NCBI GenBank assembly: GCA_030390025.1
Contig: CM059429.1
Coordinates: forward strand, 32,488,001-32,552,000
Length of the DNA stretch: 64,000 nt
Source: Squalus acanthias
Taxonomy: Eukaryota
Direction of reading: 5' to 3'
Shown: piece by piece, positions 1 to 38,561 of the stretch
Layout: every line of letters begins with the position of its first letter
How positions within the stretch are numbered: position 1 is the first letter of the stretch
Notes under the pieces: generated by a model
What the model was told of the DNA's origin: nothing
Databases searched by the model: none
The model's input: only the letters and a program-made list of their open reading frames with translations
Made by a program: the position numbers and the translations under genes

Positions 1-1671
1 GATTATTATCTGGCATTCTTTTTCTATTTATTTTTAGCATTTGTATAGGTAAGGTTGCAGTAGTAATTAGCCATATCAAGGTATCAGACTGTTCAGAGCT
101 ACAATATCAGTTATCAAGTCTTTTATAATAATATCATTTATCATGATATTAATTTCCCCTCTTCATTGTCAGCTCTGCAGTTAATTCTAGTACATGAAAT
201 TATAGCCGATGAGAGTGGTTTGCTTTCTTCTCTTGCTGTCAGGTGGGACACACTATTTCGTTTTCGTGCAGTATTTCCCCTTAATCCTATCTTGATCCCA
301 CTTTACAATAGGCCTTTCCATAAATAACACATATATTGCTTTATAATACCATATTCATTGAATATAGAATGTCTCTTAGGATTTAGCACAAAGGTTTTTT
401 GTAAATTTAATGGCATCAAAGTAGAAAAATCATGTATATTCCGTAGTGGCAGTCACTGGGGCCAGTAATAACCTTTGAATTGAATAGATGATTAACTTTG
501 GCACTCAGTAGAACTTAAATGGCATGGTAGTTAGAAGCCTAGTTTTCACGTAAAGGTGGTTTAATCAGGCAGAGTCTATCATAGTTTGAGTTCCTTGCTA
601 TTTTCTGACATAAGCTACTTTTATTAAGAAGTCCAAATCAACTTCTTAAGCTTTATTTTAGTACACAGGAACTCAAATGCTAAATGGTTAAAACAAACAA
701 CCATCATCTTTTTGTGAGAAAATTGCAAATACTTGAGGACAAATGACATTTAGGACTTGTTAGATTTTCGACCAAAAAATAGTATGGTCCTACTCAATAA
801 ATCTTTAGATTGTAGGTTTCATGACTCTTGCACTAAACAGCCAAACATTTAACACATTCATATAGCATTCATCTGTCTGGTACTTAAGGGAGGGGTTAAC
901 CTATTTATTTTATTTTAAACAGATTATTAATATCTGAGAAACACATTCAGTATTCATCCACTAATATTGTCAACAGTGTTTGCTAGCCTTGTAACTGCAA
1001 TAAGACGTTAAGACTTATACCACAAAGGCCAAAATACTTCAGTCCTTTACTCTACGGGAAAGTGGAAAGTTATGATCCTTACAGTGCTTGCTATATTAGT
1101 TGTTCTAACCAAATAAAAGGCACCAGTCACAGCATTATTTGTGGCGTTGCTGTTTATTCAGTAGTGTAAGGGTTAATGGATTGAACTGAGGTGTTGCTCT
1201 CATTGTGGCATGTGGTAGAATCTCTTCTTTCCTGGACAAATGACAGTTTTATCTATAAAGTTGCTATAATTTATTATATTTATTATTAATTTGTTACATT
1301 TAGAGGTGAAACTAAAACTTATTTACTTGTTGCTCATGAAACACATACAAATTTGTACAATTTAATGATTCTTAATTCATGATTGGAATCAAAAAACCAT
1401 GTTTCTTAGCTTTGATAACCAATAACAAAACAGACAGCAACAGTTGTCTTTCTGTTCTGTTTTATGGGGCAATTGCACATCAGGCTTTGCCATATGCTCA
1501 ACAAATACGGATCCATATTAAATCAGGCCTAAGGCAAACTGAATTAATTTTTAATGTCAGTTATGGAAAGTATTTTGCATAAAAGTGGAAAGGTACATTA
1601 TTTATGTTTTGTTTTTGTAGTAGGTGAGAGGACACTTTTAATAACAATGAGAGTTTATTTTAAGTGTAACC

Positions 1672-2245
1672 ACTACAACAATAACTTTCATTTATATAGC
1701 ACCTTTAATGTAGTAAAACGTCCCAAGGCTCTTTACAGGAGCATAATCAGACAAAAAATTGACACAGAGCCAAAGAAGGAGACATTAGGACTGGTGACCA
1801 AACGCTTGGTCAAAAAGGTAGGTTTTAAAGAGTGTCTTAAAGGAGGAGAGCGAGGTGGAGAGGTGAAGAGGTTTGGGGAGGGAATTCCAGAGCTTAGGGC
1901 CTAGACTACTGAAGGCACGGCCGCCAATGGTGGGGCGAAGGAAGTGGGGGATGCACATGAACCTAGAATTAGAGAAACACAGAGTTCTCGGAGGGTTGTA
2001 GCAATAGAGGAGGTTACAGAGATAGGAAGGGGCGAGGCCATGGAGGAATTTCAACACAAGGATGAGAATTTTTAAATCACATGTGACAATGTAGGTCAAC
2101 AAGCACAGGGGTGATAGATTAATGGGACTTGGTGCGAGTTATGATACAGGCTACAGAGTTTTGGATGAGCTCAAGTTTTTGGAGGGTGGAAGATGGGAGG
2201 CTGGCTAGGAGAGCATTGGAATAGTCTAGTCTAGAGGTAACAAAC
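1672..2245 (-). mobile_element. L2 LINE 3' fragment
   Basis: Minus ORF 1785-2102 (KILILVLKFLHGLAPSYL...GGRAFSSLGPKLWNSLP) is the L2 ORF2 C-terminus; (CAA)n-like tail at 1672; homologous to the L2 copy at 36135-37943. Confidence 0.9.
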
Positions 2246-2293
2246 ACCACTGGTCTACATTTCAGTCTTTTTGAACCTTATTAATGAAAATTG

Positions 2294-2712
2294 AAGAACT
2301 TGCATTTATATAGCACCTTCCACATACTCAGAACATCCCAAAGTGCTTCATAGCCAATTTATTCATTTTAAAATGTAATTATTATTGTTATGTAGGCATA
2401 CATGGCAGCCAATATGCTCACAAGGTGATCCTATAAACAGAAAATTAGATAAATCTGTTTTGATGATGTTGGTTGAGGGATAAATATTGGCCAGGACATC
2501 AAGAGAACTCTACTCCAATTAGTGCTATAAGATCTTTTACGTGCATCTGAACTGGCAAATGTGGCCTTAGTTTAAAGATGGCACCTCCAGCCACATAGCA
2601 CTGTCTCCATACGGTACTGATATAAATCTAGATTATGTGCTTAAAACCTGGAATGGTGCTCAAACCTGTGTCCTTCTTACTCAAAGGCTAGAGTCCTATT
2701 ACTGAGCTGACA
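2294..2712 (-). mobile_element. Deu-domain tRNA-derived SINE (SacSINE1-like), degenerate
   Basis: Reverse-complement similarity along its length to the SINE at 6094-6556, including the L2-type tail (cttgcatttatatagc). Confidence 0.8.
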
Positions 2713-4540
2713 GATAGATTTTAAAGGTGGCTTAATGGCACGCCTTACTGATATACCAACATGCCACCTTATGGAGTCCTTACACATAGGTTCATGCCCA
2801 AGAGTACCCCACATTGTAATCTTCTTTGTGACTGCACGATCAAGTGTGACATATTGAGTGGATGCTAGGTGTTTCCAATAGGAGCGGAGGGAAAATTAGT
2901 GCCCAGAATTACCGTGTTACTTTATAGTACTTAATTTTGGCCTATTACAAATGACCATCGGCAAAGGGGCGGAAGTGGTGCATATCATGGGAGCAGGAAT
3001 GGAACTTTGAATGTTAAAATGTTATTAAGAGAGGTTGCACTCGGGGGTTTGAAAAAAAAAATAAGGTTTTACTGCAGTAACAAGTAGAATCCATGTTTTA
3101 ATTTTGCTTCTAGAAAGACTTGGACAACACACACATGTATGTTTTTAAACATATAAAATAAAGTTTAGAATTAATTTCATTCTGAACTAAATACTATCTA
3201 CTAAATCTTTAACCAAGTTCCATTCTCAGCCTATGATGATTTTTTTAATGAAATCTCAAAATTTGATGAAAATACGACTTGAATTAAATATTCCTGTAGT
3301 AAAACCAGGAGTGCAAACCCTTGTTAACAGTTGATTATTTGCTAATATTACTGGGTGAATCTGGGATTTGGGGTGTCAGTCTAACTGATTTATAATCCAT
3401 TAACCTTGTTAGTCTATCTCAATTTGCAATCTGACAAATGTAATTAGATTACTGAGACAACACTGTGGTATGATATATTGCAATTTGTGTCAAATGAAGA
3501 CTTTTCCTTAAAATCAGAGCTCAGGAATGCACTGAAGCTTGTAATGATTCATTCTGCCAAATACTGTAAAATCTGGATTATAAATGACTAATTGCTCTCC
3601 TATTTCTGTGGTTATTGTAAATTGTGACAAAGTAATAGTTAGAAACCATAAATGGATATGAAAGCATGATTTACATATTGGATTTTTCTAGTGCATGAAA
3701 GTTCTAGGGCAATACATTTTTAATACTCTCCTATTGTATTTTTCTCAACACCACTCAACCTCCTTCAGCCATCAGGATTGTCCAGACTATGACTGTTTTC
3801 ACTACTGTTGTCCTCCCTACAGCAATAGCAGCCGGCAGGATCAAAATGCAATTCTGGGTAAGGGGCTTGTTTCCATATAAACCTCCATCTAGTGGTTCTG
3901 GCAAGAAGTGATGACCCCCACCCACCCCTATGAAACTAGTGCTTTTGAGTGAAAGGCAGCTCAGGGATTTGGACCTATGACCTTCTGGTTGATAGAAAAT
4001 GCTCTAGTGTGTGTACTGCTGGGCAGACTTAGGAGAGGTTTAAAGGGGTTAACGGGGTTTTCTGGCTTTGATGAGCGATTGATGAGACACTAAAATAGAA
4101 ATGCATTTTTTTCTCAGCACTCAGAGTATCTAAGCTCTAAAACAAAGAAATATTGGCAGGGTTTGGAAGAATCTTCCAGGTGGGTGTAGTTAGTGTGGCG
4201 ACATTCTTTAACTGTTTGGATTAATGAACACTGAGGAATCCTCTCTGCTGGCTGTTGTTAAGCACCTTGCAACTGAGGGGTAATGTGCAATGGATTGTCT
4301 TAATCTTTCTTTTTTTCAAAGAAATAGAATAAGCCAGACTAAAATGTCAGACACTATCAATCAAACACTAATCAGTTAAAAAGAACCTGACACTAACTTT
4401 ATATCTAATTACTTTTCCAGTATGTTTCTAATTGATAAAAAAAAATGGAATTATTTGGTAGTGAGGACAATCTCAGCTACTGACAGCTGCTAGTCAGAAG
4501 GGCTGCAGCCATTGTTTTTCGTGTCCTCCTTTTGTTTGCT

Positions 4541-4555
4541 GCCACCATCTTGTGG
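4541..4555 (-). promoter_or_regulatory. Candidate CTCF site
   Basis: Minus strand CCACAAGATGGTGGC resembles the CTCF core CCASYAGRKGGCRSY (2 mismatches), in unique sequence; motif match only. Confidence 0.3.
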
Positions 4556-4879
4556 AAAAGAAGAGAATAAATACTGAGGTTAATTCTCATTTCCTCTGAG
4601 TTCAGACAGGAAATGATTGTTGCCCTGGAGCTAGATTGGATTGATAATCGCGGAGAAGGAGAGGGAGGAAGCAAACCTGCGAGTCACACAGATAAACACC
4701 TGCACCTATGAACACCTCAGACCACACAGAGAGAACCAAATCCTTGTTTCCTTTAATTTAATATTTGCTAGTCATTATTTGATGGAAAACAAATTAAGGG
4801 TAAAACCAATTCTAATTTTGAGCTTTGCTTGAATGATAGTGATGCAACAACATAGTCAGCATTCAGTAGCTTAGCTTAA

Positions 4880-4980
4880 TGTGTGAGTTTAGACTATGTG
4901 TGTGCCAGCAGACTATTTGATAGTGAGGGTACCACAACTGAGCCCAAGCCTATCCTCAGATGACATCCACACGTACACAT
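4880..4980 (-). mobile_element. AmnSINE2-like ancient SINE fragment
   Basis: Reverse complement resembles 59380-59460 and 27750-27828 (gtgaggacaggatc...aatagcctgctgacact). Confidence 0.5.
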
Positions 4981-5870
4981 GAGGAGGTGAGCTAGCTATC
5001 AGGCTCTGTCATACACTGTGTTTATCAATTGACCCAGGACATGGAGGAAAGTGCAGCCCAGGAGAGTAGAGGCATAGGTGATGGCCTTGCTCTCCCACCA
5101 GCTCAGTTGGTAAAGGCAATGATAATATGAGTAAAAACTTGTGTAATGCTAGTAAAAGGCAGTAGGGCAATTCACCTGTGTTTATTGCAGGTCTAAGGAT
5201 TTTTGCCCATCCAAAATGGATTAATGAGCTTTGGCAAAATGCTGTGCTGATTTTTCTTGTTAAGATCATTAATTATGAATTGTGCAGAATTACAGAGGCT
5301 AATCAAAAGTGAGTATTTAACTCCACTTCAGTCCCAGCATTAGTGAACTTAATGAAGGAGAGTTTTTTTTGAGAATCACAGCAGTGAGAGAAATGAGTTA
5401 TACAGAGGAACTGTCTATCAGAGAGCATGAGTGTGGTGGCCATTGCCCAGGAGAGCAGAGGCATAGGAGCAATGGGTTTTATGCCAATCAATGAGTCTAT
5501 TGCAACAGAGTTTAGCTGAGTATTATGGAGGAACAGTGCATGAGTAGGATTAGGCTTTGTATGGAGTGAGTTATGCCATCTGTTCCATGATGTTCTGAAG
5601 GGACAGTCAACCATGAACACTGCATTGCCCATGGCAGTGAAGGTCGTCACTATCTACAACTTTTATGCCAAATACCCAAATGGGTCATCTCAAGAATCAA
5701 TCACTTTAACCATTACAATACAATACATTAAGGAAGTAACTGAAGCCCTGTGTCATCATGCATTGAGCTATATGCACTTCAACGACCAACAGCAGCAGAA
5801 ATAGCACTTTTTTCCTAAAATTCTGGCTTCCCCAAAGTATAGTGCATCTTTGACTATACATGTATAACTA

Positions 5871-5950
5871 CCATGCTGGGGACCACGTGATCATTCTGGG
5901 GACCATGTGACCATCCTGGCCCATGCATGGCATGCTGGGAGTTGTAGTCC
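5871..5950 (-). promoter_or_regulatory. ZNF143/THAP11 (SBS) motif preceded by 20-bp repeats with E-boxes
   Basis: 5929-5950 reverse complement = GGACTACAACTCCCAGCATGCC; upstream units ccatgctggggaccacgtga / tcattctggggaccatgtga / ccatcctggc. Confidence 0.55.
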
Positions 5951-5984
5951 GGAGTTGGGAGGGGGCAATATAGGATCAGAAGTC

Positions 5985-6621
5985 CCATTACCATCTCCTT
6001 TTGCCTCGCACCATTATCCCTTTTGTCATTCAATCTCTCCTGCCTTCCACCCTATCACAGACCATCCCTTTTGTTCTTTCCTCCCCTCCACAATGTCAGC
6101 CATGATGGGTAGCACTCTCGCCTCTGAGTCAGAAGGTTGTGGGTTTGAGTTCCGCTCCAGCGATTTGAGCATAAAAATCAAGGCTGACACTCCCAGTGCA
6201 GTACTGAGGGAGTACTGCACTGTCGGAGGTGCCGTCTTTTGGATGAGATGTTAAACCGAGGCCCCGTCTGCTCTCTCATGTGGACATAAAAATTCCCATA
6301 GCACTATTTCGAAGAAGAGCAGGGGCGTTCTCCCCGGTGTCCTGCCCAATATTTATCCCTCAACCAACATCACTAAAACAGATTATCTGGTCATTATCAC
6401 ATTGCTGTTTGTGGGAGCTTGCTGTGCGCAAATTGGCTGCCACATTTCCTACATTACAACAGTGACTACACTTCAAAAGTACTTCATTGGCTGTAAAGCA
6501 CTTTGGGACGTCCTGAGGTCGTGAAAAGCGCTATATAAATGCAAGTCTTTTTTTCTTTTCCCCCCCTTTCCCTGCCTCTGTATTTGCTTAAAACCTGTTA
6601 AATCTCTAACTTTTTCCAGTT
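5985..6621 (+). mobile_element. Penelope-like element 3' region/pLTR, split by a SINE
   Basis: 5985-6093 and 6560-6621 are colinear with 49445-49582, which follows a GIY-YIG domain; ends ...ttttccagtt just before the hammerhead core. Confidence 0.8.
6094..6556 (+). mobile_element. Deu-domain tRNA-derived SINE (SacSINE1-like), near full length
   Basis: tRNA-like head (gggtagcactctcg...gggtttgagttcc), internal palindrome agtgcagtact-gaggg-agtactgcact, Deu-type core (tgtcggaggtgccgtc...gatgagatgttaaaccgagg), 3' end gcgctatataaatgcaagt shared with L2. Confidence 0.85.
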
Positions 6622-6625
6622 TCCG

Positions 6626-7003
6626 GGAGATTTGATAGAGGTGTTCAAAATCATGAGGGGTCTGGACTGAGTAGATAGAGAGAAACTGTTCCTATTGCCA
6701 GAAGGGTCAAGAACCAGAGGACACAGATTTCAGGTGATTGGCAGAAGAACCAAAGGTGACATGAGGAAGAACTTTTTTACGCAGCGAGTGATTATGATCT
6801 GGAATGCACTGCCTGAAAGGGTGGTGGAGGCAGACTCAATCATGACTTTCAAAAGGGAATAGGATAAGTACCTGAAGGAAAAAATTTGCAGGGCTACGGG
6901 GAAAGGGCGGGAGAGTGGGACTTGCTGAAGTGCTCTTGCAGAGAGCTGGCACAGGCTCGATGGGCCGAATGGCCTCCTTCTCTGCTGTAATGATTCTATG
7001 ATT
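6626..7003 (+). mobile_element. CR1 LINE 3' fragment
   Basis: GDLIEVFKIMRG...FFTQRV..IWNALP; (ATTCTATG) tail; homologous to 49583-49980. Confidence 0.9.
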
Positions 7004-7146
7004 ATATTTGTGCATCCATAATCTGATGTCATCCCTAATTAGGAAGGGTTATTTTTCCATCTACATGGAAATGCTATGTTAGTCCTGCCACAAAATAATG
7101 CACCTCAAAACGTGTTTTTTTTTGGTAGGGTGGGGGTGGGGGTTAA

Positions 7147-7460
7147 TGCATGTATTCATTCTGAAGCAATGGGATGTGATACAGCACTTTTAAAGAAAGA
7201 TGGATATCTGGCTTCCATGAGAAATGGGAGCACGGTCAACCATGTTTGATAACACCTATCCACAACCATTCTATCCAGCAGAAAATAAAAACAATGAGGC
7301 ACATGGGGAAACCAAGGCCTTCACTGAGTAGACATTTGGTGTGCTAAAGCAGTGCTTTAGTTGCTCGAATTGGTTATATAGGGCCGTACAATATGCCCTA
7401 GAGTACGTCTGCAAAATTTGTGCAGTTTAATGCATGCTACACAAATTTGCCATTAACAGA
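7147..7460 (+). pseudogene. Degenerate PIF/Harbinger (HARBI1-like) DDE transposase C-terminal relic
   Basis: Manual translation LITPIHN/YPAENKNNEAHGETKAFTE*TFGVLKQCFSC...VQYALEYVCKI..*CMLHKFAI matches the Harbinger pattern LMTP..YN.AH..TR..IERTFG.LK.RF.CL...LQY.P..VC.I..C.LHN; contains stops and a frameshift, so it is absent from the ORF track. Confidence 0.75.
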
Positions 7461-8786
7461 AGCCCCATAATAAGGAGCCACTACCAGCTATGAAAGATCA
7501 GGAGTATTATGTTGTGCAGCAGCCACCAGCAGTAGACTTGCCACTGAGGTAGGGAAACAGGTGTGTAAGAATAGCATTGTTTTCCACTGAGGTCTACAAT
7601 TGGGTATGATTACTTTCCTTTGTACATATTAACAATTACAGCATTTCTAGTTGCTTACTTTTTTTTTTGCAGAGAACTGCATATGTTTTGTCATGTTTTC
7701 TTTGGGACAACTCATGTTATTTTCTGCACAGTGTAAGAATGACAGTCTAAGATATATTAAAATGAATTAGTTTTATTAAGTTGTCCAATACTATTTGTGT
7801 ACATATTTAATATGTTTACCTCTTGAACTTTTCCTTGTTTCTTCTAAATTTCTTCACGTTGGTTGTGATGTCCCCTACTAGTACATGCACTCCCACTTAA
7901 AGTAATAACATTAGTTGGGGTAGTATAGCCAATGGGCAAGCTCATACATGCCACCATCAGCCTTTTAAACTGATATCAACCTTTCAATCCATGTGCCAGC
8001 ATTTTACAAGAAAAATCCACTTTTTTTCACTGGCATTGGAAGTTGTCAGTTCAATCAATTAGCTCATTTGGATGTTGGGATTGGAGCCTATCAGCACCAG
8101 ACAGGTTGGAGGGTGGGACTGGAATCAATCAGCTGTCACTTTCTCTCATTGTTGAATACAAACTTGGTTTCTGAGAGACCCAGTTATGGGGTGTTTATTA
8201 GTGTTCGTCCCTAAAGAAGCTACGTATAAACTAAAAACTACTAAAATGCAGTTTCTAAAAACGTTTCTGGGGCATGCTGTCTCATGTCAAGGTTTCTGTT
8301 CTTCAATGCTGGTTGTCGCTATATTTTTAAGATAAGGTGGATGTTCCCTGGTGTAAATGGCCATGAAGTGGCTTTATTTGACAATTCCTGTTACTGTATT
8401 TGCCAAAGTTTGGAAATATAATAAGGAGTGGGTTTGGAATGCTGATGCATTTTATGTAATTAAAAAATATACTGAGATTCACCCTCAGAGTTACAGAAGG
8501 CTCCAAAATGCCAAATCAAGTGACAAAAATTTAAAATTGTTCGGGGGGTGGGGGCAGGCACGGGAGGATGACCCCCCATAGAAGATAAAACCCTGATGAA
8601 CCTGCATCAGTGCCTAGCATCTCCTTTTCTGTAGTTACCGGGGGGCTTATTCTTTCAATAGCCTTCATTGTAAATCAGACCAACTAAGGTCTGTGTTCCT
8701 ATACAACTCAGGAAGGGAATTCAGAATGCTGGACCTGTGGCCTAACTCATCTGGTTTTTTTTAGCAACCACCACCACTAGAAATAA

Positions 8787-9210
8787 TGAACTTGCATTAT
8801 AAAGTGCCTTTTATGACCTCAGGATGTCCCAAAGTACATTTGCAGTGTAGTGACTGTTGTAATGTAAGGAAATGCAAACAGCCAATTGGAACACAGCAAT
8901 GAGATAAATAAACAGACAAACTGTTTCAGTGGTGTTGGTTGAGGGATAAATGTTGACCAGGATACCAGGAAATCTCCCCCATTCTTCTTTGAATAGTATG
9001 GTGAGATCCTTTACATCCTCCTGAGAGGACAGATGAAGCCTTGGTTTAATGTCTCATTTCAAAGATGGCACCTCCGACACTACAGTACTCCTTCACCACT
9101 ACGTTGAAGTGATAGCCTAGATTATATGCTCAAGTCTCTGGAGTGGGGTTTGAATCCATGAACTTCTGACTCAGAGGTGAGAGTGCTACCACTGAGCCAA
9201 GACTGACACC
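8787..9210 (-). mobile_element. Deu-domain SINE (SacSINE1-like)
   Basis: Reverse-complement copy of 6094-6556, from tail (gaacttgcattataaagtgcc) to head (gagtgctaccactgagcc). Confidence 0.85.
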
Positions 9211-9624
9211 TGCATTGTCATTACCACTGATCTGTTTAGGTTTTGTATTGTTATTACACACACGGATGGACTCGGACATATAATGTATCATGAATATGTG
9301 ATTTATACCAGTAGTTCTGTGCGCTCCTCCAATTTCCACAGTCTCAATGTCTTCCAAGCTCTTCCCTGCTGAATAAAATAGATTTTTGCTTCCTCCTAAG
9401 TAGTTAGTTTCTTCTCAAACACTTGTTTCACACTATGCCTCCAGTTTTGTGCAAGTGTTTGCTCTTAAACATAAGAACAGGGGTGATTGGAACAGGGTGA
9501 CTTGGCTCATGGAAATTCCTTCCTGAAGTATATTTTCTTTCCCATCATAGCATATATAATGTAACTTGCAGAATTTTGCTATTTTCATGTCTTCTACATT
9601 ATCTGCTACAACCTACAATACACT

Positions 9625-10468
9625 GGGCTGGATTTTACTTACCGAGACGAGTTGGGGGCGGGACTGCTGCCTTCCAGGTTCTAGTCCCGCTCCCAGCGAC
9701 GTCCGATGCACAGATGCTATTTTCCCTTGATTGGCCTTGTTAAGCCCACCCTGCGGGCTTTCTGGCCAATTAAGGGAAAGCCGGTGTCAGATGACATCAG
9801 TTGATGACGCTTCATCTGCCGGTTTTCTTAAAGGGACATGAAACATTTATTTTTGACAGTGTTTGACAGCGTTGAGGTGCTGTCAAACACTGACAATCAC
9901 TGTACAAAGGTGAGCCCTTGTACCTAGGCTCTCCAATGACTCTCTGCTTAGGATAAAACAGATGGCAGCTGCAGGTGAGGGTACAGAAGCGATCTGTCAC
10001 TTCTCCCAATGAGGTGAGGCCACACAAACACTTCAGAGCTTGTCACCTACAGAAAAATCTAAACACATTAAAAATGACTTTCCCAACATTTCCTTACCTC
10101 TGATACTCACCAGTGTCCCATTACATCCTTCACACCACTCCTGCAGCTGTCATCTATACACAAACATTACAACAGACCCACAGCACGCCTCACTTACCCT
10201 GGCAGGGTTCCCCGACATCAGGAAACCCGCAGCAGAAGTCGCAAAATGGGAAAAAGCCTCTTAACTACCTGTTAACAGGCAGTTAAGTGGCTATAATCCT
10301 CTTCCCGTCGCTAGGAGTCGGGTCCCTGCGCAAATGGGGGACCCGACCCTCGGGAAGATTGGCTGGAGGCGGGTTGGGAGCGGGTTTGGGACCCGCTCCC
10401 ATTCTTTTTGATTTTCCCAGCAGTCCCGCCTCCAACCCTGCCTCCTCGGGGCTGGTAAAATCCAGCCC
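9625..10468. mobile_element. Harbinger-type non-autonomous element (MITE), 844 bp
   Basis: TIRs GGGCTGGATTTTAC / GTAAAATCCAGCCC, 3-bp TSD ACT on both sides; related to 24288-25130. Confidence 0.9.
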
Positions 10469-10770
10469 ACTGTGTCAGTTTAAATTTTTTTGATATATTT
10501 GAACTATTATTAGTAATAGTCACACTTTACTTTTGTCCTCTTTAAGGTGTTCAACTTATTTCGGACCTTCGGTCAGGTCTTCTGAATAAATATTCCTTTC
10601 AGCAAAAACTGCCACACTTGTGGCTCCTTAGCATATTTTGAAACTGTTCGACTCCTCCCCTCCAAAAAGTCCATGACAGTTGTTACCAGTATGTATTGGG
10701 TCATTTGACCGTTTCTAAATTGTTGTTGCGCCAGTATCCACAAATATTGTGTGCTCCACAGCTGTAGAAA

Positions 10771-10820
10771 TGGGGTGGGGTGGGGTGGGGTGGGGTGGGG
10801 TGGGGTGGGGTGGGGGGGGG
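10771..10820 (+). repeat. (TGGGG)n microsatellite, G-quadruplex-forming potential
   Basis: Eight TGGGG units followed by a G run. Confidence 0.9.
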
Positions 10821-10966
10821 AAATTTCACCTTCACCACTTGGGCAGTAAACTGGTGGAGCAGATCGATGCCCATTATAATGGAAGTGAAAATGGGGCCTG
10901 TTCTATAACGGGTGTTGATCTGCTCCACCAGTTTACTGCCCAAGCGGTGAGGGTGAAAATTACCCC
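10816..10966. mobile_element. Short fold-back MITE
   Basis: ~60-bp near-perfect inverted arms (cttgggcagtaaactggtggagcagatc / gatctgctccaccagtttactgcccaag) with GGGG...CCCC termini. Confidence 0.8.
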
Positions 10967-11367
10967 ATTAACTTACTGACATTTATATCAATTAACTGGT
11001 TTGTCACCCGCTTGACAAGTGTTAAAGAGTTGTTATTAAAGATACTCATTACATTGAAATTAATTGCTAGCTTTTCAGGGTCTGGGTTAAAATTGCATTC
11101 TTAGGAAGCCTGTGTTTCAAAACTGTATTTTGCAATGACTTTTGTGAGTGGTATAAGCATCTCACAGGCAGAGTGTTTTGCTTCATGGGAAGAAAACCTG
11201 ACCAAAGTGCAATTTTGGATTCTATTGGCCGTCACAATGTTGTTTGTGAATCTTGTAAAGATGTCTTTGGCCTGGACCTTCCTGTCCATAGGAAAGTGTT
11301 ATGAGCTGAGAGGAGAAAATTGAAACCCAAAAACAGGAAAAGGAATCAAAAATAACAAGACACGATG

Positions 11368-11526
11368 GAGGTAATTTTAACTGAAATGCCGGATACCGGA
11401 CCAGCTACTTCTCCCGATTTTCCTTTCCATTGTCTTTAATAGAAAGGAAATTGCGGAAAGGTGTATACCGGGCGGCGAGTCTGATATCCCCCATTTTACG
11501 TTATCGCCAAAAGTTAAAATTAATCT
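11368..11526. mobile_element. Degenerate short MITE
   Basis: Termini aggtaattttaact / agttaaaattaatct; central palindrome ttcctttccattgtctttaatagaaaggaa. Confidence 0.6.
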
Positions 11527-11996
11527 GGCTAGTTTGTAAGGGATATTTTTTCATAATTTTTACAAAAGTGAGTAATGTAAAGCATTACTTAATATACTTA
11601 AAAAAAAATACAAAAATACTTACATAAGAACATGTTCTGCTTACAGAACAACGTTTTTTTTTCTTGACAGCTTGAGCTTCTCCAAAGAGGAATTAACCAT
11701 GGTACAGAGAGTGTAATTATAATTGAAGTGCTGTAATCTTTCCATGGCAATTTATTCTGCACCAGGCTTTCTTAAAACTAGTATTTATTTTTCCTTTTAC
11801 ATCGTTCTTCATATGCCTGGCACCCTCCCCTAATAAGAAGCATGGGGAGGGCACTGCAGCCTTCTGGATACCTTTGGGATTAGGCCTAAATTATATTTTC
11901 TGTTGTCTCCATAATCTACTGATCGAGCTGAGCAGTTGTTCAAAGTGAGCACCAATGCATTTGGTGAGTTGAGTGTTAGGTCTCAGTAGTGAATTA

Positions 11997-12331
11997 ACAA
12001 CAACAACTTGCATTTATATAGCACCTTTAACATAGAAAAACACCCCAAGATGCTTCACAGAAGTGTTATCAAATAAAATTTGACACTGAGCTGCATAAGG
12101 AGATATTAGGACAGGAAAGAGGTAAGTTTTAAGGAGTGTCTTAAAGGAGCAGAGAGGGGTAGAGGAGCGGAGAGGCTTAGGGAGGGAATTCCAGAGCCCA
12201 GGGCCCAAGCAGGTGAAGGCATGGTCACCAAAGGTGGGGCGATTAAAATCAGGGATGTGCAAGAGTTGGAAGATCGCAGAGATCTTGGAGGGTTGTCGGG
12301 CTGGAGGAGATTCCAGAGATAAGCAGGGCCT
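11997..12331 (-). mobile_element. L2 LINE 3' fragment
   Basis: (CAA)n tail; HIPDFNRPTFGDHAFTCLGPGLWNSLPKP. Confidence 0.9.
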
Positions 12332-12519
12332 AGTGCCTGAAAGGGTGGTGGAGGCAGACTCAATCACGGCTTTCAAAAGGGAGTTGGATAAGTACCTGAA
12401 GGAAAAAAATTTGCAGGGCTACAGGGAAAGGGCGGGGGAGTGGGACTAGCTGAAGTGCTCTTGCAGAGAGCCGGCACGGGCGTGACGGGCCGAATGGCTG
12501 TAACCATTCTATGATTCTA
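12332..12519 (+). mobile_element. CR1 LINE 3' tail
   Basis: PERVVEADSITAFKRELDKYL; ends attctatgattcta. Confidence 0.9.
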
Positions 12520-12589
12520 GTGTCATTATCCAGAAAGAGCATAAGGAAATGCTAACAATGGATGAGTATTGTTGTCCCAGTTATATACA

Positions 12590-13484
12590 CTCAGCATGAC
12601 TTTTAGCTAAATCATTTGTTGATGTCAAAACACTGAGTTTATCTTGGAGGAAAGCAACACTGAAGTCGATCTGATTTACTGGGGAGCCAATTTGAGTTCT
12701 GCAACTCAGGTCAAATTGTGGGCAATTTCAGAGTTGATCCAACCTTTGATGTGTGGTTTAACCAGGGTACTAATTTTCAGAACTCAAACTTTTCAGTGTG
12801 GAATCAAAATGTACGTGATTCAGTACATTTTAATAATACAATGACGTCCTTAGAGATTTAGTTTTGTTTAATGAGAACAGACTTGTAATTGCAGATGGAA
12901 AGCAGTGATATGGATAGATAATCTAATCTATGATTGCATCTCTTCCTTCCTCCCCCCCCTTCTCATGCAGGTGTCTGGTCCAACCTGTTGGATGAGTCTG
13001 TTTGCACAAGACATCGCAGATGAGGGTCTTACCCATTCACGGCTGATTGCACACAGAGCGGAACACAGGTTACCACGTCAACTGCTGAGACACGCAGGTG
13101 TGAGCAATCAGTGCAGATCAGCACTAATCCATCAGATACTGGAATACTTTGAGCAGAGGCAGACTCAGCTGCATACCTTCAGATGAATGAACTGCATCAG
13201 ACCTGGCTATTGGCAGCCCCTCTCTCTGTTTCTCTAAATATATATTAAAGCTAATCGGTGAACGTAACGTGTATTTTGATCTGAGAAATGATTAAGCCAC
13301 TCTGTGCTCGATAACAAAATTATTTGGAAAATAAATGATTAAAATTCCCTCCTAGTAAATGAGGAGATCCGTATGGATTCATTTCGAGGTATATAAGACT
13401 TACGTTTTTTGAAAGCACAAAATTAGGATTTTACAAGTTTTAGTGTTTTGACATCAACAAATGATTCAACTAAAAGTCAGGTGA
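12590..13484. repeat. Long-range imperfect inverted repeat (arms ~12590-12638 and ~13438-13484)
   Basis: tgacttttagctaaatcatttgttgatgtcaaaacact vs reverse complement of the right arm tgacttttagttgaatcatttgttgatgtcaaaacact (2 mismatches in 38 nt). Confidence 0.9.
12971..13480 (+). other. Candidate cassette exon (non-coding or poison)
   Basis: Acceptor: branch-like atctaat, ~28-nt pyrimidine tract, tgcag|G at 12970/12971; donor CAG|GTGAGC at 13480/13481; stops in all three frames; no transcript evidence. Confidence 0.4.
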
Positions 13485-13974
13485 GCCAAGTATCCAGGTC
13501 ATTTTAACAACATCTGCTTATGGGCTGTGATTTACTTTATTATTAACTGTTCAGAGAGTCATACTTGAGCCAAAGATTTCAACCCAAGAGGCCTGTATAC
13601 AGTACTTGTAAATCATAAATAAGATTCTGAATAGCAAATAAATGGTCTGTAAACAAGGATTGTCGGTGTGGTTTTTAAATAAACTTTGAACATTTTTTGG
13701 TAAAGTGATTAATTTGATTAATACAACATTCTCAGAACAGTTAAAACTCTAACATAAGTCTCCATCATTAGAATATTTTAGGGTATTACTAAACAGCAAT
13801 ATTATCCTATCAACACATCAAAGAGGCAATTAACAGAAAAGAAAAGCCCTTTGTTATTGTGCAGCAGTGATAGCAGACAGCCAATAATACACTATAATAT
13901 TTACTTTTCTATCGTGGTGTCAGTCTCTGGAGTTATTAGGTAACACCCATTGCCATTAGTTACAATAGAGTAGA

Positions 13975-14460: not shown

Positions 14461-16689
14461 TTATTCTGTTGGACCCAGTCAAGTACATACCATATCTAAT
14501 GGGGCAGTGTTGTGTATCCCCCACATTTTTTAATTACCTCAGTTTCCCCCTTAGAATATCTCCTTATTGATTCCTCATCTTTCAAAAAAAAGCGTGTGGG
14601 CTGAAGATTCTCTTGTGGGTGCCAATAATGGTCCTCCATGATTATTAGTCAGCTGGTATAATTCTACAGGGAGGGGATAGCAATCTGCTGTGACTAAATG
14701 CTTTACCTCATGACCCAGCCAAGAACTTGGCAAACTCATCAACTGAGCAAAATTGAGTTGGACTGAGATCTGACCAGAATCCTTTTGAATGCGAGTTAAG
14801 CTTTAGAACTACCATTCTAGAGTTATATTATAACTCAACCTATGATTAAGTGGAAAAAAATGAATTATTGCTTCAAGATTTGAGTTTTCTCTGCTTGCTG
14901 TTTTATTTAGGGTTTTGTATTTTGTTTTTCTATAGAAGTTTTGATCAATCAGAACATTTTATCTGGTTCTAGGAAATTAAACTAATGCTCATGAAAGTGA
15001 GAAAATCCAATCATTTAAAATGTAAAATTAAAGTATCTAATGGAAGCAAATTAAATACTGTTGCTTACCATGATCTTGCTTATTCCATCTTTCACTTTTT
15101 ACCTAATTATGTTCTTATGGGAAGGTAAGTCCTATAATGGATTACAAACCGATAGCCTTCTTGACTCAAGGATTTAATGAAAAAGACAATAAAACACAGG
15201 AGAAAGAAATATGAATGGGTGTCATTTTTCTATGTTGTCTAATTTAAATATAGTCAATTTCTTTGCTTTAAGCATCCGATTCTAATGCTACTGAAACTAT
15301 AGTGAGAAATGTAATATACCATCAGTCATCTAGATAAGCCAGGAAAGTGTTAAATCTCAGCTTTTTGCTGAATTAATTAAATTTTATTCCAAAATATTGT
15401 AATTCAAGATGCATAGTGATTTACATAGTTTAAGTAAGATACTGAGACTTTAGTTTAATTTGTTGTTTATCAGTCAAAAATTACATGAATGAATGGATGA
15501 ATACTAACAACTATGGATGAGCACTTCCTATGGTAAAATCTTTCTTTTATTGTTGACATCTTGCCAAGTTAATAGAAACTAACATTTATCCAGTATAGTG
15601 TTAGCGCTACCAATTGTATAGAGCACTGTGGTTTTTTTTAAGCAAAGTAAGGGTTAAAAAGAATGTTTGATAAAGGCAATCCAAAATAAGCATTTTTAAT
15701 CAAAAAATTCAGTTTTGGAGAAAAGCAATTTTCACCATAATGTATGTAAATAGAATAGAATAGGACATTTAGTTCTTACCCTTTCTGTATTGCCTTTGTG
15801 TTTACTGCAAAGCCCCTTTATTTTAGTTGCTATGAAGTTGTATGTTGACGAAGGATGCCGACTATAATTGTGCAAAAGAGAAGCAGCATCCAAGTAGCTA
15901 AAGTTCGGGATGCTATACAGGTAAGAAGCATCCAGGAATAACTGCCAAAAAGGTTGTTAGTTCTGGTGTCTGGCAACCAACACATTTTCAGCTCCTGTTC
16001 CTAATACTCATGTACTCACGCTGAGTTGTTTTTTTTTCCTTCATTCCCTCTGGGAGCTCGAACATTTACAATAATTGACTTGTAATTAGAGCGTATTTGT
16101 GATCTGCTCCGCAGCTAATTGTGCATCGAGGAAAAAAACTGACACTGGTGAAGCCAGCTTGACCCCTGACTTCTGACAGAGCTGCACGGTAAACAATCTG
16201 CCAGTGTATTGCCCAGGTGGATTCAGAGCGGCAGGTTAATCTCAGCTTTCAGCGAAGAGGAACAAAACTTCTTGATGAAGGGACAGATGTGTTTAATTGA
16301 GTAATTTTACTGCATTCAGACATGTACTCGGAAACCAAAAGTACAAGAGAAACTCATCAGCAGCTATAGTTCATTGGAGTAATGAAACCAAACACCTGCA
16401 AGTGTGGGGAGGCTTGCTTTTTTATGTCCTGTGACTGTGATGTATTTCAATCTGTTTTCTTTGCCACAGAAAAGGTATTCTTAAAGGAGAAACACATGAC
16501 TTTCTGAACAACTGTTAAATGGTTGGTACATTCCATTGTTTCATTTTGAGAAGACTCAGTAATGCATCTTTTATACTAAGATGATACATGTACACAAGGA
16601 TGAAAGGAGGAGTAAATTCATTTCAATGCAAATCTAATCTCTAGCAAGTCCTGAAACCAGAATATATTAACCATGTTCCAACCATTGCT

Positions 16690-27828: not shown

Positions 27829-29461
27829 AGGCCGGACCGCCGCAACACGCCTTTCCCAATGTCGGGTCTGTCAGCGCTGAGCAGACCCGACTGGCAGCGG
27901 CGGGCGACCCAATTAAACTCATTATAGTGTACTTACCAGACGTTTAACAGGCTTTTTTTTACCTTACTTTTTAACTTTAAGTTCATGGCCACGGGAAGCA
28001 CGCTGTTTGGGGACCACGTCTGTCAAGCTGAGGCGGGGGTTCAGTGGCCAATGCTCCAGTGGATTCCTTGACAGCTTCAAATGTACAGTAATAGCTCCCA
28101 CCTGACAGAGATGACTTTCCTCAACAGATTTTGCATGCTGCAAATCTTTACACAAGTCTCCATCCAGTCTCACGTCATTACCTCTCTCACCATTGACAAA
28201 TCGTTTCTGTCATCTCTACTTCATCTGTCATCTATTCCATCAACATGGGTGCCATTGTTATTGTCTAACCTTGGTCCTCAGAATTGGACCATGATGAGCC
28301 CCAACACCAGCAGCACCAACAACAACACCAACCTCCTCCGCAATCAACTGATGCTGCACAGGACACAGGGCATCAGCACCCGAGCATATTGCTGCCCGGG
28401 AGACCAGGGATGGCCTCACCATGGCCAGATTTACTTCACTTTACGCTGTACACCCTGGCTGCCACATGATGCGCCAGGTTGGCACCACACCACACCAACA
28501 CCATAAAGCATTCCTACAATGACCAAGCCATTCCTTTCACACTCATCACCATTGCGGGGGGGGTACCGTTATGTCTCACCATTCACTGGAACTCACTAAG
28601 CCACTTCCAAAGGTGCACACAAATCTGTCCAAGACCGGAAAGTGTTGGAAATAAAGATTTCAATGTTTGACAGCACATTAGTAGAAACTTTACATAAACA
28701 TTGGATAAAACACCCAAGTGGCTACCCTTGTGTGTTGTTAGTTGGTATGATTGGACTAGGATGAGAGTGAGTGTGAGGGGCGGCTAGTGAGATAGGGATG
28801 TGATAATGTAGATAGTGATGGGTGGAGGTGCAAGGTAAGTTGGTGTGAGTAAGGATGTGCAGGAGTAGGGTAGGGAAGGCAGAGTGATGGGGATGTGATG
28901 AGAGGCACAGCAGGATGAGGTTGACTGTGGTTTTGCACTAACGCTTTGTGATCTAATGAGATCATTGAAACGTTTGCGCCACTGCACCCAGGCCCTCCTG
29001 TCCACATCCCTGCTTGTGCCCTCCTGTGCAATGTGCAACCAGGCTGTTTTGGTCTCCTGGGGAGGTGTCTTCCGCCCATCGGAAGTGAAGAGGACCTCCC
29101 TGCGTGCTGTGACTCCCTCCATAAGCATATGGAGGGAGTCATGGGAGAGCCTGGGTGCAGCCCTGAACCTCTGTGCAGTCATTGTCAGTGTTTGCAGCAC
29201 TTCAATGCTGTAGAACACTGAGTGCACAAATGTCAAAAGAAAATTGGCCATGATCCCTTTAAGGAAACCGGCTGATGACGCGTCATGAATGATGTCACCA
29301 GACCTGCTTCCTCTAATTAGGCTGGGAAATGCGCTGGGTGGACTTAACAAGCCCTAGCAACGTAAATTAATTTTAGGCAGCGGGATGGAGCCAGCAGCGG
29401 GGCCGCGACCCGCCACCGACACCAGCCGCACCGGACCCACCCAGCTAAGGAAAATCCCGGC
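27829..29461. mobile_element. Internally deleted Harbinger transposon (Myb/SANT gene plus transposase N-terminus)
   Basis: Right TIR-like end ggaaaatcccggc; Myb/SANT ORF on minus; Q/H-rich transposase-like N-terminus (ATG GGT GCC at ~28245) on plus, in convergent orientation. Confidence 0.8.
28945..29190 (-). pseudogene. Harbinger Myb/SANT-like DNA-binding domain
   Basis: RAAPRLSHDSLHMLMEGVTARREVLF...KTAWLHIAQEG...RAWVQWRKRFNDL in ORF 28784-29350. Confidence 0.85.
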
Positions 29462-35502: not shown

Positions 35503-35863
35503 TTGGTCCCCTCATCCAAATCATTGATATAGATTGTGAATAGCTGAGGCCCAAGCACTGATCCTTGCGGTACCCCACTAGTTACGGCATGCCAACCCGA
35601 AAATGACCCATTTACTCATACTCTCTATTTTCTGTCCGTTAACCAATCCTCAATCCATGCTAATGTATTACCCCCAATCCCATGCGCACTAATTTTGTTT
35701 AATAACGTCTTATGTGGCACCTAATTGAATGCCTTCTGAAAATCCAAATACACCACATCCACTTGTTCCCCCTTATCTATTCTGCTAGTTACAACCTCAA
35801 AAAACTCTAACAGATTCATCAAACATGATTTCCCTTTCATAAATCCGTGTTGACTCTGCCTAA

Positions 35864-38561
35864 TGTTGGCGGATTGAAGAGCTGAGGCACAATGGACTGC
35901 CACAGGATGAATGAGTCATGGCAACTGCCAGGGAACTTGGCGCAAACATGCATAATGTTCTTCCTGTGGTTACACACCAGCTGGACGTTAAGGGAGTGGA
36001 AGCCCTTGCGGTTTACAAATACAGCTGGGTTGTGATGGGGTGCCCTAATGGTCACATGTGTGCAGTCTACGACGCCCTGCACCCTTGGGAAGCCTGCCAT
36101 ATTTACAAAGCCAACCGCACACCTGGTATCACTTGCTTCATCTGTGTCTCTAAGATTGAGACCATCCATTCAGATGCCTCTGCCACTTCCATTCCTTCCC
36201 CTAGCCCACCGGACCAAACTCTCTCTAAGGTTCCCCCCTGCCCTAGCCCTGAACTCACATCTATCTCCAGTTTCTCTCCGATTTCCCCTCATGATCTCTC
36301 TGCGCTTATCTTGTCTATGAGACTCACTTCCTGCTCCCTCGGCCCTATTCCTACCAAACTGCTGACCACCCAACTTCCTTTTCTGGCTCCCATGTTAGCT
36401 GATATTGTTAACGGTTCTCTCTCCTCAGGTACTGACCCCCTCTCAATCAAATCTGCCATCATCACCCCTCTCCTCAAAAAAACAAACCTTGATCCCTCCG
36501 TCCTTGCAAACTACCGCCCCATCTCCAACCTCCCTTTCCTCTCCAAAGTCCTTGAACGTGTTGTCACCTCCCAAATCTGTGCCCATCTTTCCCGCAATTC
36601 CATGTTTGAATCCCTCCAATCAGGTTTCCGCCCTTGTCACAGTACCGAAATGGTACAAAGTCACAAATGACATCCTTTGTGACTGTGACAAAGGTAAACT
36701 ATCCATCCTTGTCCTTCTTGACTTGTCTGCAGCCTTTGACACGGTTGACCACTCCATCCTTCTCCAACGCCTCTCCAGTGTCGTCCAGCTGGGTGATACT
36801 GCACTCGCCTGGTTCCATTCTTATTTATCTAATCGTAACCAGAGAATCACCTGCAATGGCTTCTCTTCTCGCTCCCGCATCGTTACCTCTGGTGTCCCCC
36901 AAGGAACTATCCTTGGCCCCCCCTATTTCTCATCTACATGTTGCCCCTTGGTGACATCATCTGAAAACACAGCGTCAGTTTCCATATGTACGCTGACGAC
37001 ACCCAGCTCTACCTCACTACCTCTTCTCTCGACCCCTCCACAGAGTCTAAATTGTCAGACTACTTGTCCGACATACAGTTCTGGATGAGCAGAAATTTTC
37101 TCCAACTAAATATTGGGAAGACCGAAGCCATTGTTTTCGCTCCCTGCCACAAACTCCGTTCCCTAGCCACTGACTCCATCCCTCTCCCTAACATCTGTCT
37201 GAGGCTGAACCACACTGTTCGCAACCTTGGTGTCATATTTGACCCTGAAATGAGCTTCCGACCACATAGCGTAACAACGACCGCCTACTTCCACCTCTGT
37301 AACATAGCCCTTGCCTCAGCTCATCCACTGCTGAAACCCTCATCCATGCCTTTGTTACCTCTAGACTTGACTATTCCAATGCACTCCTGGCTGGCCTCCC
37401 ACATTCTACCCTACGTAAACTTGAGGTGATCCAAAACTTGGCTGCCCGTGTCCTAACTCGCACCAAGTCCCGTTCGCCCATCACCCCTGTGGTTGCTGAC
37501 CTACATTGACTCCCGGTTAAGCAACGCCTCAACTTCAAAATTCTCATCCTTGTTTTCAACTCCCTCCATGGCCTCGTCCCTTCCTATCTCTATTATCTCC
37601 TTCAGCCCCACAACCCCCCGAGATATCTGCGCTCCTCTAATTCTGCCCTCTTGAGCATCCCTGATTATAATCGCTCAACCTTTGGTGGTCGTGCCTTCTG
37701 TTGCCTAGGCCGTAAGCTCTGGAATTCCCTCCCTAAACCTCTCCGCCTCTCTACCTCTCTTTCCTGCTTTAAGACGCTCCTTAAAACCTACCTCTTTGAC
37801 CAAGCTTTTGGTCATCTGCCCTAATTTATCCTTATGTGGATCGGTGTCAATTTTTTCGTCTTACAATACTCCTGTGCAACGCCTTGGGACGTTTTACTAC
37901 GTTAAAGGCGCTATATAAATACAAGTTGTTGTTGTTGCTGTTGTGCCTGGTTCTGCTGCTGCCACGGCTGCTCTTCCTCCGATTCCGAGGACCAGGATGA
38001 GAGGGTATAAATGGTTTCCATTCTGCTGGTATGTATATCAGTTGAGGAAGAGATGTTATAAGTGATCAGTCAATGTGGGGAGAGGGTATTCCAAGGAGGT
38101 CACAGTGCATATGGATCTCAGATTAAACACTTACAACCTCAATATACCTGCAAAATGTGTTCCAAAACCTCAAAACAGAAAGTTCTGGCATCTGAAAGTG
38201 AACTCATGTTACAGGTCAGCTTTTATGCTGCAGGTGCAGTTGTCAACTATTCAGCTAGTTGCTAAACCCGGCACAATCAGCTGGCGTGTTTGTCACATGA
38301 CGTGCAACACGCTGAAAATGTTGCAAAATGGGAAGAGCCTCTCAAAATAGGATTATCCAGGCAGTTAACAAGCTGTTAAGTGCCTTAAGTAGCTCTCCCA
38401 CCACTTGGTGTCGGGTCTGATCGGAACTCGCAGACCCGACACTCTGTAAAATTGCGCGGTGGCAGGATGGTAGTGGGTTCGCAACCCGCCATCAATCATT
38501 TTAATTTTAACACCGGACCCGCCTCCAAAACCGCCCTCTGAGTGCTGTCAAAATCGCGGCC
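35864..38561 (-). mobile_element. Truncated Harbinger transposon with a DDE transposase fragment, split by L2
   Basis: 35864-36135: [19 protein letters not shown]...[14 protein letters not shown]...[11 protein letters not shown]; N-terminus METIYTLSSWSSESEEEQPWQQQ at ~37945-38020; TIR-like end aaaatcgcggcc at 38561. Confidence 0.85.
36135..37943 (+). mobile_element. L2 LINE 3' half (RT), frameshifted
   Basis: NYRPISNLPFLSKVLE, QSGFR, LLDLSAAFDTVDH, GVPQG, YADDTQLY; (TTG)n tail. Confidence 0.95.

Follow-up and report, generated by a model that had tools for sequence, protein, structure and literature searches.

A non-coding RNA has a long exon, probably its terminal one, that begins at position 12971 of the window, by which we mean the whole 64,000-nt stretch analysed (G000:C5:32488001-32552000; positions without a prefix are counted from its first letter). 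The exon is a real and conserved element, newly located at the SOX2 locus, and it is probably surrounded by a long-range duplex between one arm in the upstream intron and a second arm within the exon itself (Table 1). The explanation that we favour, tentatively and at a little less than even probability, is that this conserved intron-exon duplex, which is predicted by folding, brackets the exon, loops out its acceptor and tunes its use. An earlier note on this DNA had proposed a stop-containing cassette exon whose donor is masked by the duplex, a model that is now largely refuted.

Table 1. Positions of the spliced exons, the paired arms and nearby signals (window numbering unless prefixed).
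Feature	Position	Strand	Remarks
Upstream exon	L023:9220-9328 = G000:C5:32487220-32487328	+	109 nt, non-coding, maps once
Intron, most of it	1-12970	+	13,642 nt, GT-AG; begins 672 nt before the window
Left arm	12597-12634	+	intronic; 336 nt separate its end from the acceptor; helix predicted to extend over 12590-12593 and 12635-12637
Acceptor region	12923-12970	+	branch-point-like motif at 12923, polypyrimidine tract, AG; junction seen in RNA
Long exon of non-coding RNA, probably terminal	12971-13516	+	followed to at least 13516 in D; H reaches about 13579 and G about 13945
Internal donor-like site	13097-13098	+	score 8.5; its use would end the exon after 127 nt, the arms then being 336 and 344 nt away
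AATAAA	13330-13335	+	within the duplex loop; further AATAAA at 13637 and 13678
Right arm	13442-13479	+	exonic in RNAs of D, G and H; starts 471 nt into the exon
Donor-like motif	13480-13486	+	strong; RNA reads through; beyond D not conserved

RNA-type runs from three relatives are joined at 12971

The piece with the arms and the acceptor, or parts of it, was present in 20 of 24 sequence runs (9 studies, 9 organism labels). Its word share was 0.97-1.0 for label A, the source species; labels B, C, D and E had 0.52-0.65, F had 0.16, and G, H and I had 0.06-0.10. Two RNA-type runs of the source species had a word share of 0.00. Four of the 24 runs were compared at 12530-13085, one of them DNA (F) and three of RNA type (D, G and H), the latter being three other organisms from three studies, with the run type guessed and G flagged as probably DNA. 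RNA evidence was taken from the assembled contigs of these relatives, one contig per junction, and minor forms are dropped by such contigs. The 3' side was read indirectly: the right arms of the contigs match the left arm in reverse, and their loose ends give the letters that follow.

Contigs began exactly at 12971 in all three RNA-type runs and carried identical letters upstream of it. A single place in the genome matches these letters, namely the end of the upstream exon, which is preceded by AG and followed by a GT donor. The shared junction is a splice junction, so the RNAs come from the + strand, and the spliced + strand host transcript supposed in the earlier note was thereby found. The same note had called the acceptor very strong; it ranked 11 of 4044 AG sites on the + strand of the window, as scored by our own approximate splice matrix. 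Of the two junctions that the note had expected, the one at 12971 was seen in each RNA-type run, but the one at 13480 was seen in none, all three runs reading through it. In G two more upstream junctions lead into the acceptor, so that three junctions meet there. The two extra upstream ends had no match in the genome at up to 2 mismatches, and over the surrounding 1.06 Mb their matches did not exceed those of reversed-motif controls; they therefore do not tie the exon to SOX2-OT.

The contigs continued without a break through 13480 to the ends given in Table 1, and the word share of D (0.55) equals that expected for an RNA holding exactly 12971-13516 unchanged (0.554). No contig in D, G or H covered 12644-12966, and no skipping junction was observed in the contigs of these runs. 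An apparent intronic RNA cover of the left arm was rejected, as it came from the right arm of the same contigs matching in reverse.

Two complementary arms flank the acceptor

The arms are 38 nt long, lie 807 nt apart and are complementary at 36 of 38 positions (95%), with the two mismatches (C12607/A13469 and A12609/C13467) both of the A-C kind. G-U pairs at 12635 and 12637 lengthen the helix inward, and 12590-12593 also pairs with 13482-13485 in the predicted fold. The arms, their mismatches, the inward G-U pairs and the outward ctca/tgag extension had all been described in the earlier note and are confirmed here. When up to 2 mismatches were allowed, the longest inverted match was 38 nt, whereas in 200 shuffles it averaged 13.9 nt and never exceeded 18 nt. 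Across 664 kb of the region there were only 4 inverted pairs of at least 30 nt, at least 88% identity and 0.1-3 kb spacing; two of these have no further copy there, and the pair described here is the longer of the two. An inverted pair without other regional copies was also seen at L048:5667-5974, about 160 kb upstream of SOX2 (about 32 nt, 94%, 246-nt loop).

Both arms lie inside one + strand transcription unit. Folding of 12560-13520 gave the arm helix pair probabilities of 0.97-1.0 at 34 of 38 positions and a contribution of about 36 kcal/mol relative to the fold without the helix; the 44-nt duplex was predicted at -50.9 kcal/mol and its 19-bp core alone at -24.9. In the folding model, pairing of the 12971 acceptor and of the AATAAA at 13330 was the same with or without the duplex, so any effect on them would be exerted by looping and not by masking. 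The 13480 donor was paired when the duplex formed, and partly paired without it too.

Intron-exon duplexes edited by ADAR, as in the GRIA2 Q/R site and ADARB1 self-editing, are helices longer than 20 bp that contain A-C mismatches, and the shark arms would form a helix of the same description. Unlike those systems, they show no editing in the contigs of D and H, lose the mismatch region in G and offer no codon to recode. The right arms of D and H had 2 mismatches, the same number as in the source genome and hence no sign of A-to-G editing; these counts fit an unedited majority in contigs that hide minor forms, and G is unalignable opposite the A-C mismatches.

The host RNA lies far downstream of SOX2

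The SOX2 open reading frame (L064:5162-6091, +) is on the same strand, 216.9 kb upstream of the acceptor. A match to Rfam SOX2OT_exon1 (RF01951) was found at L055:646-879 (+), 94.3 kb upstream of SOX2, with 122.7 bits against a cut-off of 65; this exon appears to extend over L055:646-889 (G000:C5:32188646-32188889, +), with a GT donor at about 890. RF01952, RF01953 and RF01954 had no genome match over cut-off among the best candidates, which alone were scored. The exon at 12971 matched no SOX2OT exon model, and no Rfam hit at gathering score was obtained in the window or in 30 neighbouring loci, where relaxed E-values gave only sub-threshold chance hits. About 100 kb of non-repeat sequence separates SOX2 from the exon, which is therefore probably not the canonical last exon of Sox2ot. 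Likely hosts are a distal SOX2-OT isoform and an independent lncRNA whose position resembles that of human LINC01206.

SOX2-OT (Sox2ot in mouse) is described in parts of PMC4469893, PMC5762901 and 10.1101/680082 as a multi-exon, non-coding transcript of the SOX2 strand with promiscuous exon joining. The shark RNA is similarly spliced (GT-AG, +), lies on the SOX2 strand and is without coding signature, and the shark SOX2-OT exon 1 is 94 kb upstream of SOX2 compared to about 88 kb in mouse, as given in part of PMC5762901. However, according to the same source Sox2ot extends in mouse to about 40 kb past Sox2, whereas the shark exon is 217 kb downstream, and none of the Rfam exon models for SOX2-OT describes it. 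LINC01206 is a human lncRNA that also lies at a great distance downstream of SOX2 (about 150 kb past SRR134) and has a separate promoter, situated among the enhancers of SOX2 (PMC10602899 and PMC8654995); its likeness to the shark RNA is positional only.

Every frame of the upstream exon is interrupted by stops. The 12971 exon has one long frame, in which 2 of the five cross-species changes that could be placed are synonymous and 3 non-synonymous. We therefore take the host to be non-coding. No coding exon was recognised in a splice-site-guided search of 464 kb, in which the best 150 of 464 candidates were inspected by eye, and none between SOX2 and 200 kb past the window.

Some other features of the locus were seen in the course of this work. 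About 40 kb around SOX2 (L063-L005, G000:C5:32268001-32308000) are nearly free of repeats and raised in CpG, comparable to the transposon-free regions of Sox2. A 173-codon open frame in unique sequence at L052:601-1119 (-), 125 kb upstream of SOX2, resembles a real coding exon; it had no Pfam or PDB match and may be EF-hand-protein-like. Within the window, unique sequence at about 4490-4740 looks by eye like a conserved regulatory or promoter-like element.

Arm pairing may compete with splicing into the exon

Because the left arm is intronic, the duplex would be restricted to pre-mRNA that still holds the upstream intron, the arm being removed with it. Pairing would be possible only once polymerase has transcribed about 470 nt of the exon. 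If splicing is quick, the exon would be committed before the arms pair. If splicing is slow, the arms could pair and close an 807-nt loop that holds the branch point, the acceptor, the conserved start of the exon and, at 13330, the AATAAA. The balance would then tip towards a later exon, with this one skipped, or towards delayed processing. Arm pairing would thus compete with splicing into 12971 and set how often transcripts end there, by analogy with human PCCRs.

Human PCCRs lower the inclusion of looped-out exons, and an alternative terminal exon of FGFR1OP2 is among those looped out, as reported in part of PMC8052449. The shark arms are like PCCRs in that a stable long-range helix, with a conserved core in its right arm, is predicted to bracket a splice site and a poly(A) signal, at an acceptor with alternative partners. 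They differ in that the PCCR catalogue, as far as that part of the source describes it, covers protein-coding genes and mostly intronic pairs, whereas the shark host is non-coding, has one arm 471 nt inside an exon and would have only the acceptor side looped.

The 97-100% identity of the exon start, its fixed upstream partner and the pairing core together point to selection on the RNA or its processing, and the two 38-nt arms make up a small element with which it can be tested whether RNA structure controls a lncRNA of the SOX2 locus. Sox2ot is thought to act mainly through transcription, with exons less conserved than promoters and splicing that is arguably random (part of PMC5762901). A more far-reaching version of the competition model, which we regard as rather improbable, is that the race between splicing and duplex formation is an ancient kinetic switch, possibly shared with bony vertebrates, that decides whether a SOX2-OT-type transcript ends here or runs on across distal enhancers. 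If true, such a switch would be a conserved RNA structure setting the length of a lncRNA thought to act via transcription. A survey of titles and abstract openings turned up no work on shark Sox2ot or on long-range duplexes in lncRNAs of the SOX2 locus; the supplementary tables of PCCR and RIC-seq studies may hold a human counterpart.

The exon start and the pairing core are conserved among relatives

Over the first ~115 nt of the exon, the relatives differed from the source genome at 0 (D), 1 (G) and 3 (H) positions, with 3 listed differences in F, which corresponds to the identity given above. Compared to the left arm of the source genome, the right arm had 2 mismatches in 38 nt in D, 2 in 33 in H, 1 in 22 in G and 3 in 36 in F, and its core at 13447-13465 (19-22 bp) stayed complementary in all four. 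The placement of the right arm was collinear at 13442-13479, with a net length difference of 0 in D, +5 in H, -22 in G and -2 in F. Conservation thus agreed with the earlier note in the right-arm core (four of four relatives) and in the acceptor used in three of three RNA-type runs, but not in the donor at 13480, where GT was kept only in D, was GC in F and CC in H, and was unalignable in G.

In H there was no extra mismatch in 33 nt of the right arm, compared to 6 changes in the 30 nt just downstream (p=0.009, assuming that the two mismatches of H are the two of the source genome). G kept 22 nt of the right arm, lost the outer 14 bp and was unalignable over the next 30 nt. F had one more mismatch, and its pair 12598/13478 is lost unless an unlisted change restores pairing. 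F is the only relative that covers the left arm, and 4 of its 34 differences were not placed. In its intron, 27 listed differences fall within 12648-12910, and the blocks 12573-12647, 12701-12760 and 12833-12892 have none that was listed. The left arm took 0 listed changes in 38 nt, compared to 27 in 276 nt of intron (p=0.057, or p=0.78 if the 4 unplaced differences all fall in the arm), while a neighbouring local hairpin (12691-12709/12770-12788) that we had considered as a conserved candidate was broken by 4 substitutions and an insertion. Since two other 60-nt blocks of the intron also had no listed change in F, the conservation of the left arm is not special. The acceptor tract of F had 12 extra letters, 8 of them in two all-pyrimidine runs. 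No compensatory substitution was shown in the arms; both arms were available for F only, and the letters at reverse-match mismatches were not listed.

These data bear on the main rival explanation, which we find somewhat unlikely: that the arms are two DNA regulatory modules derived from an old inverted duplication and kept in a distal SOX2 enhancer, with RNA pairing incidental and the exon overlapping the enhancer. The locus is the SOX2 gene desert, other intron blocks were as unchanged in F as the left arm, and the helix is slightly eroded in F and G with no compensation seen. According to the cited sources, many Sox2ot exons overlap Sox2 enhancers (10.1101/680082), essential human enhancers lie 124-134 kb downstream of SOX2 (PMC10602899), and opposite-strand transcription-factor sites are known to give spurious signals of conserved complementarity (PMC4174434). 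On the other hand, 38 nt at 95% far exceeds a factor site, a 24-mer of the arm occurs at exactly two sites in the 3.7-Gb genome at up to 2 mismatches, namely the two arms, and the arms bracket an acceptor that is used. If the arms were enhancer copies, the element would be an ordinary conserved non-coding element. The two blocks without a listed change at 12701-12760 and 12833-12892, of 60 nt each, may themselves be enhancer modules; the first holds a TCF/LEF-like site and the second homeodomain-like TAAT cores.

Donor-like sites within the exon are read through

A shorter unit, the 127-nt exon 12971-13097, may alternatively be the one that is regulated, with the arms looping it out or promoting its circularisation and the long RNAs being a read-through, intron-terminated form. 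Its donor score of 8.5, the near-symmetric spacing of the arms (336 and 344 nt) and the concentration of the strongest conservation, within the region compared, in the first ~115 nt fit this idea, as does an enrichment of conserved pairs outside back-spliced exons in part of PMC8052449. Neither this donor nor the AATAAA at 13330 had been mentioned in the earlier note. However, contigs of 684 nt (D), 640 nt (H) and 953 nt (G) run across 13097 without a break, even though those of G break at the acceptor. As contigs drop rare forms, 13097 may have minor use, and we consider this explanation doubtful.

The 510-nt stop-containing cassette 12971-13480 of the earlier note, with its donor masked by the duplex, is very unlikely. 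Several of its elements were borne out: the interval translated from 12972 has stops in all three frames, and the consensus donor motif adjoining the right arm ranked 4 among the window's 3500 + strand GT sites by the same approximate matrix, is intact in D and is paired in the fold with the duplex. A candidate downstream exon is also at hand in unique sequence at 15827-15920 (+), with an acceptor score of 5.7, a donor score of 11.0 and an ATG at 15855 followed by 22 open codons to the donor, which may be a downstream exon of the same RNA. However, the motif is used as a donor in none of the three RNA-type runs. In D the RNA is identical to the window for 30 nt after the arm, donor included, and continues unspliced to about 13516; in H it continues for about 100 nt, with the 6 changes in 30 nt noted above; and in G it is unalignable after 13465 and continues for about 480 nt. 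F and H have lost the GT, and in the folding model some pairing of the donor persists when the duplex is absent. The cassette model fails at its 3' end, on use as well as on conservation. The logic of a poison exon fails as well, since the host looks non-coding and has no frame to interrupt. A donor motif left unspliced in a terminal exon can favour retention of the RNA in the nucleus (PMC4380460), and the 13480 motif may have such a side role in the source lineage.

The element is single-copy in the genome

The earlier note had seen no second copy, target-site duplication or transposase remnant, and as regards copies this holds genome-wide: a 961-nt element containing the arms matched only itself in the 3.7-Gb genome, in a search that scored the best candidates only and returned one place. 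That the exon is the sole surviving, exapted copy of an ancient DNA transposon, with the arms as its terminal inverted repeats about 880 nt apart, is highly improbable and the family is rejected, since there was no other copy of the element at the one candidate place scored, no further site for the arm 24-mer, no target-site duplication around the arms and no Pfam match in frames over the exon and inner interval, and the interior is more conserved than the flanks of the termini. Elsewhere in the window, we observed a Myb/SANT-like frame at 28784-29353 (-) and a DDE_Tnp_4 frame at 35837-36169 (-), which we take to be typical remnants of Harbinger-type transposons.
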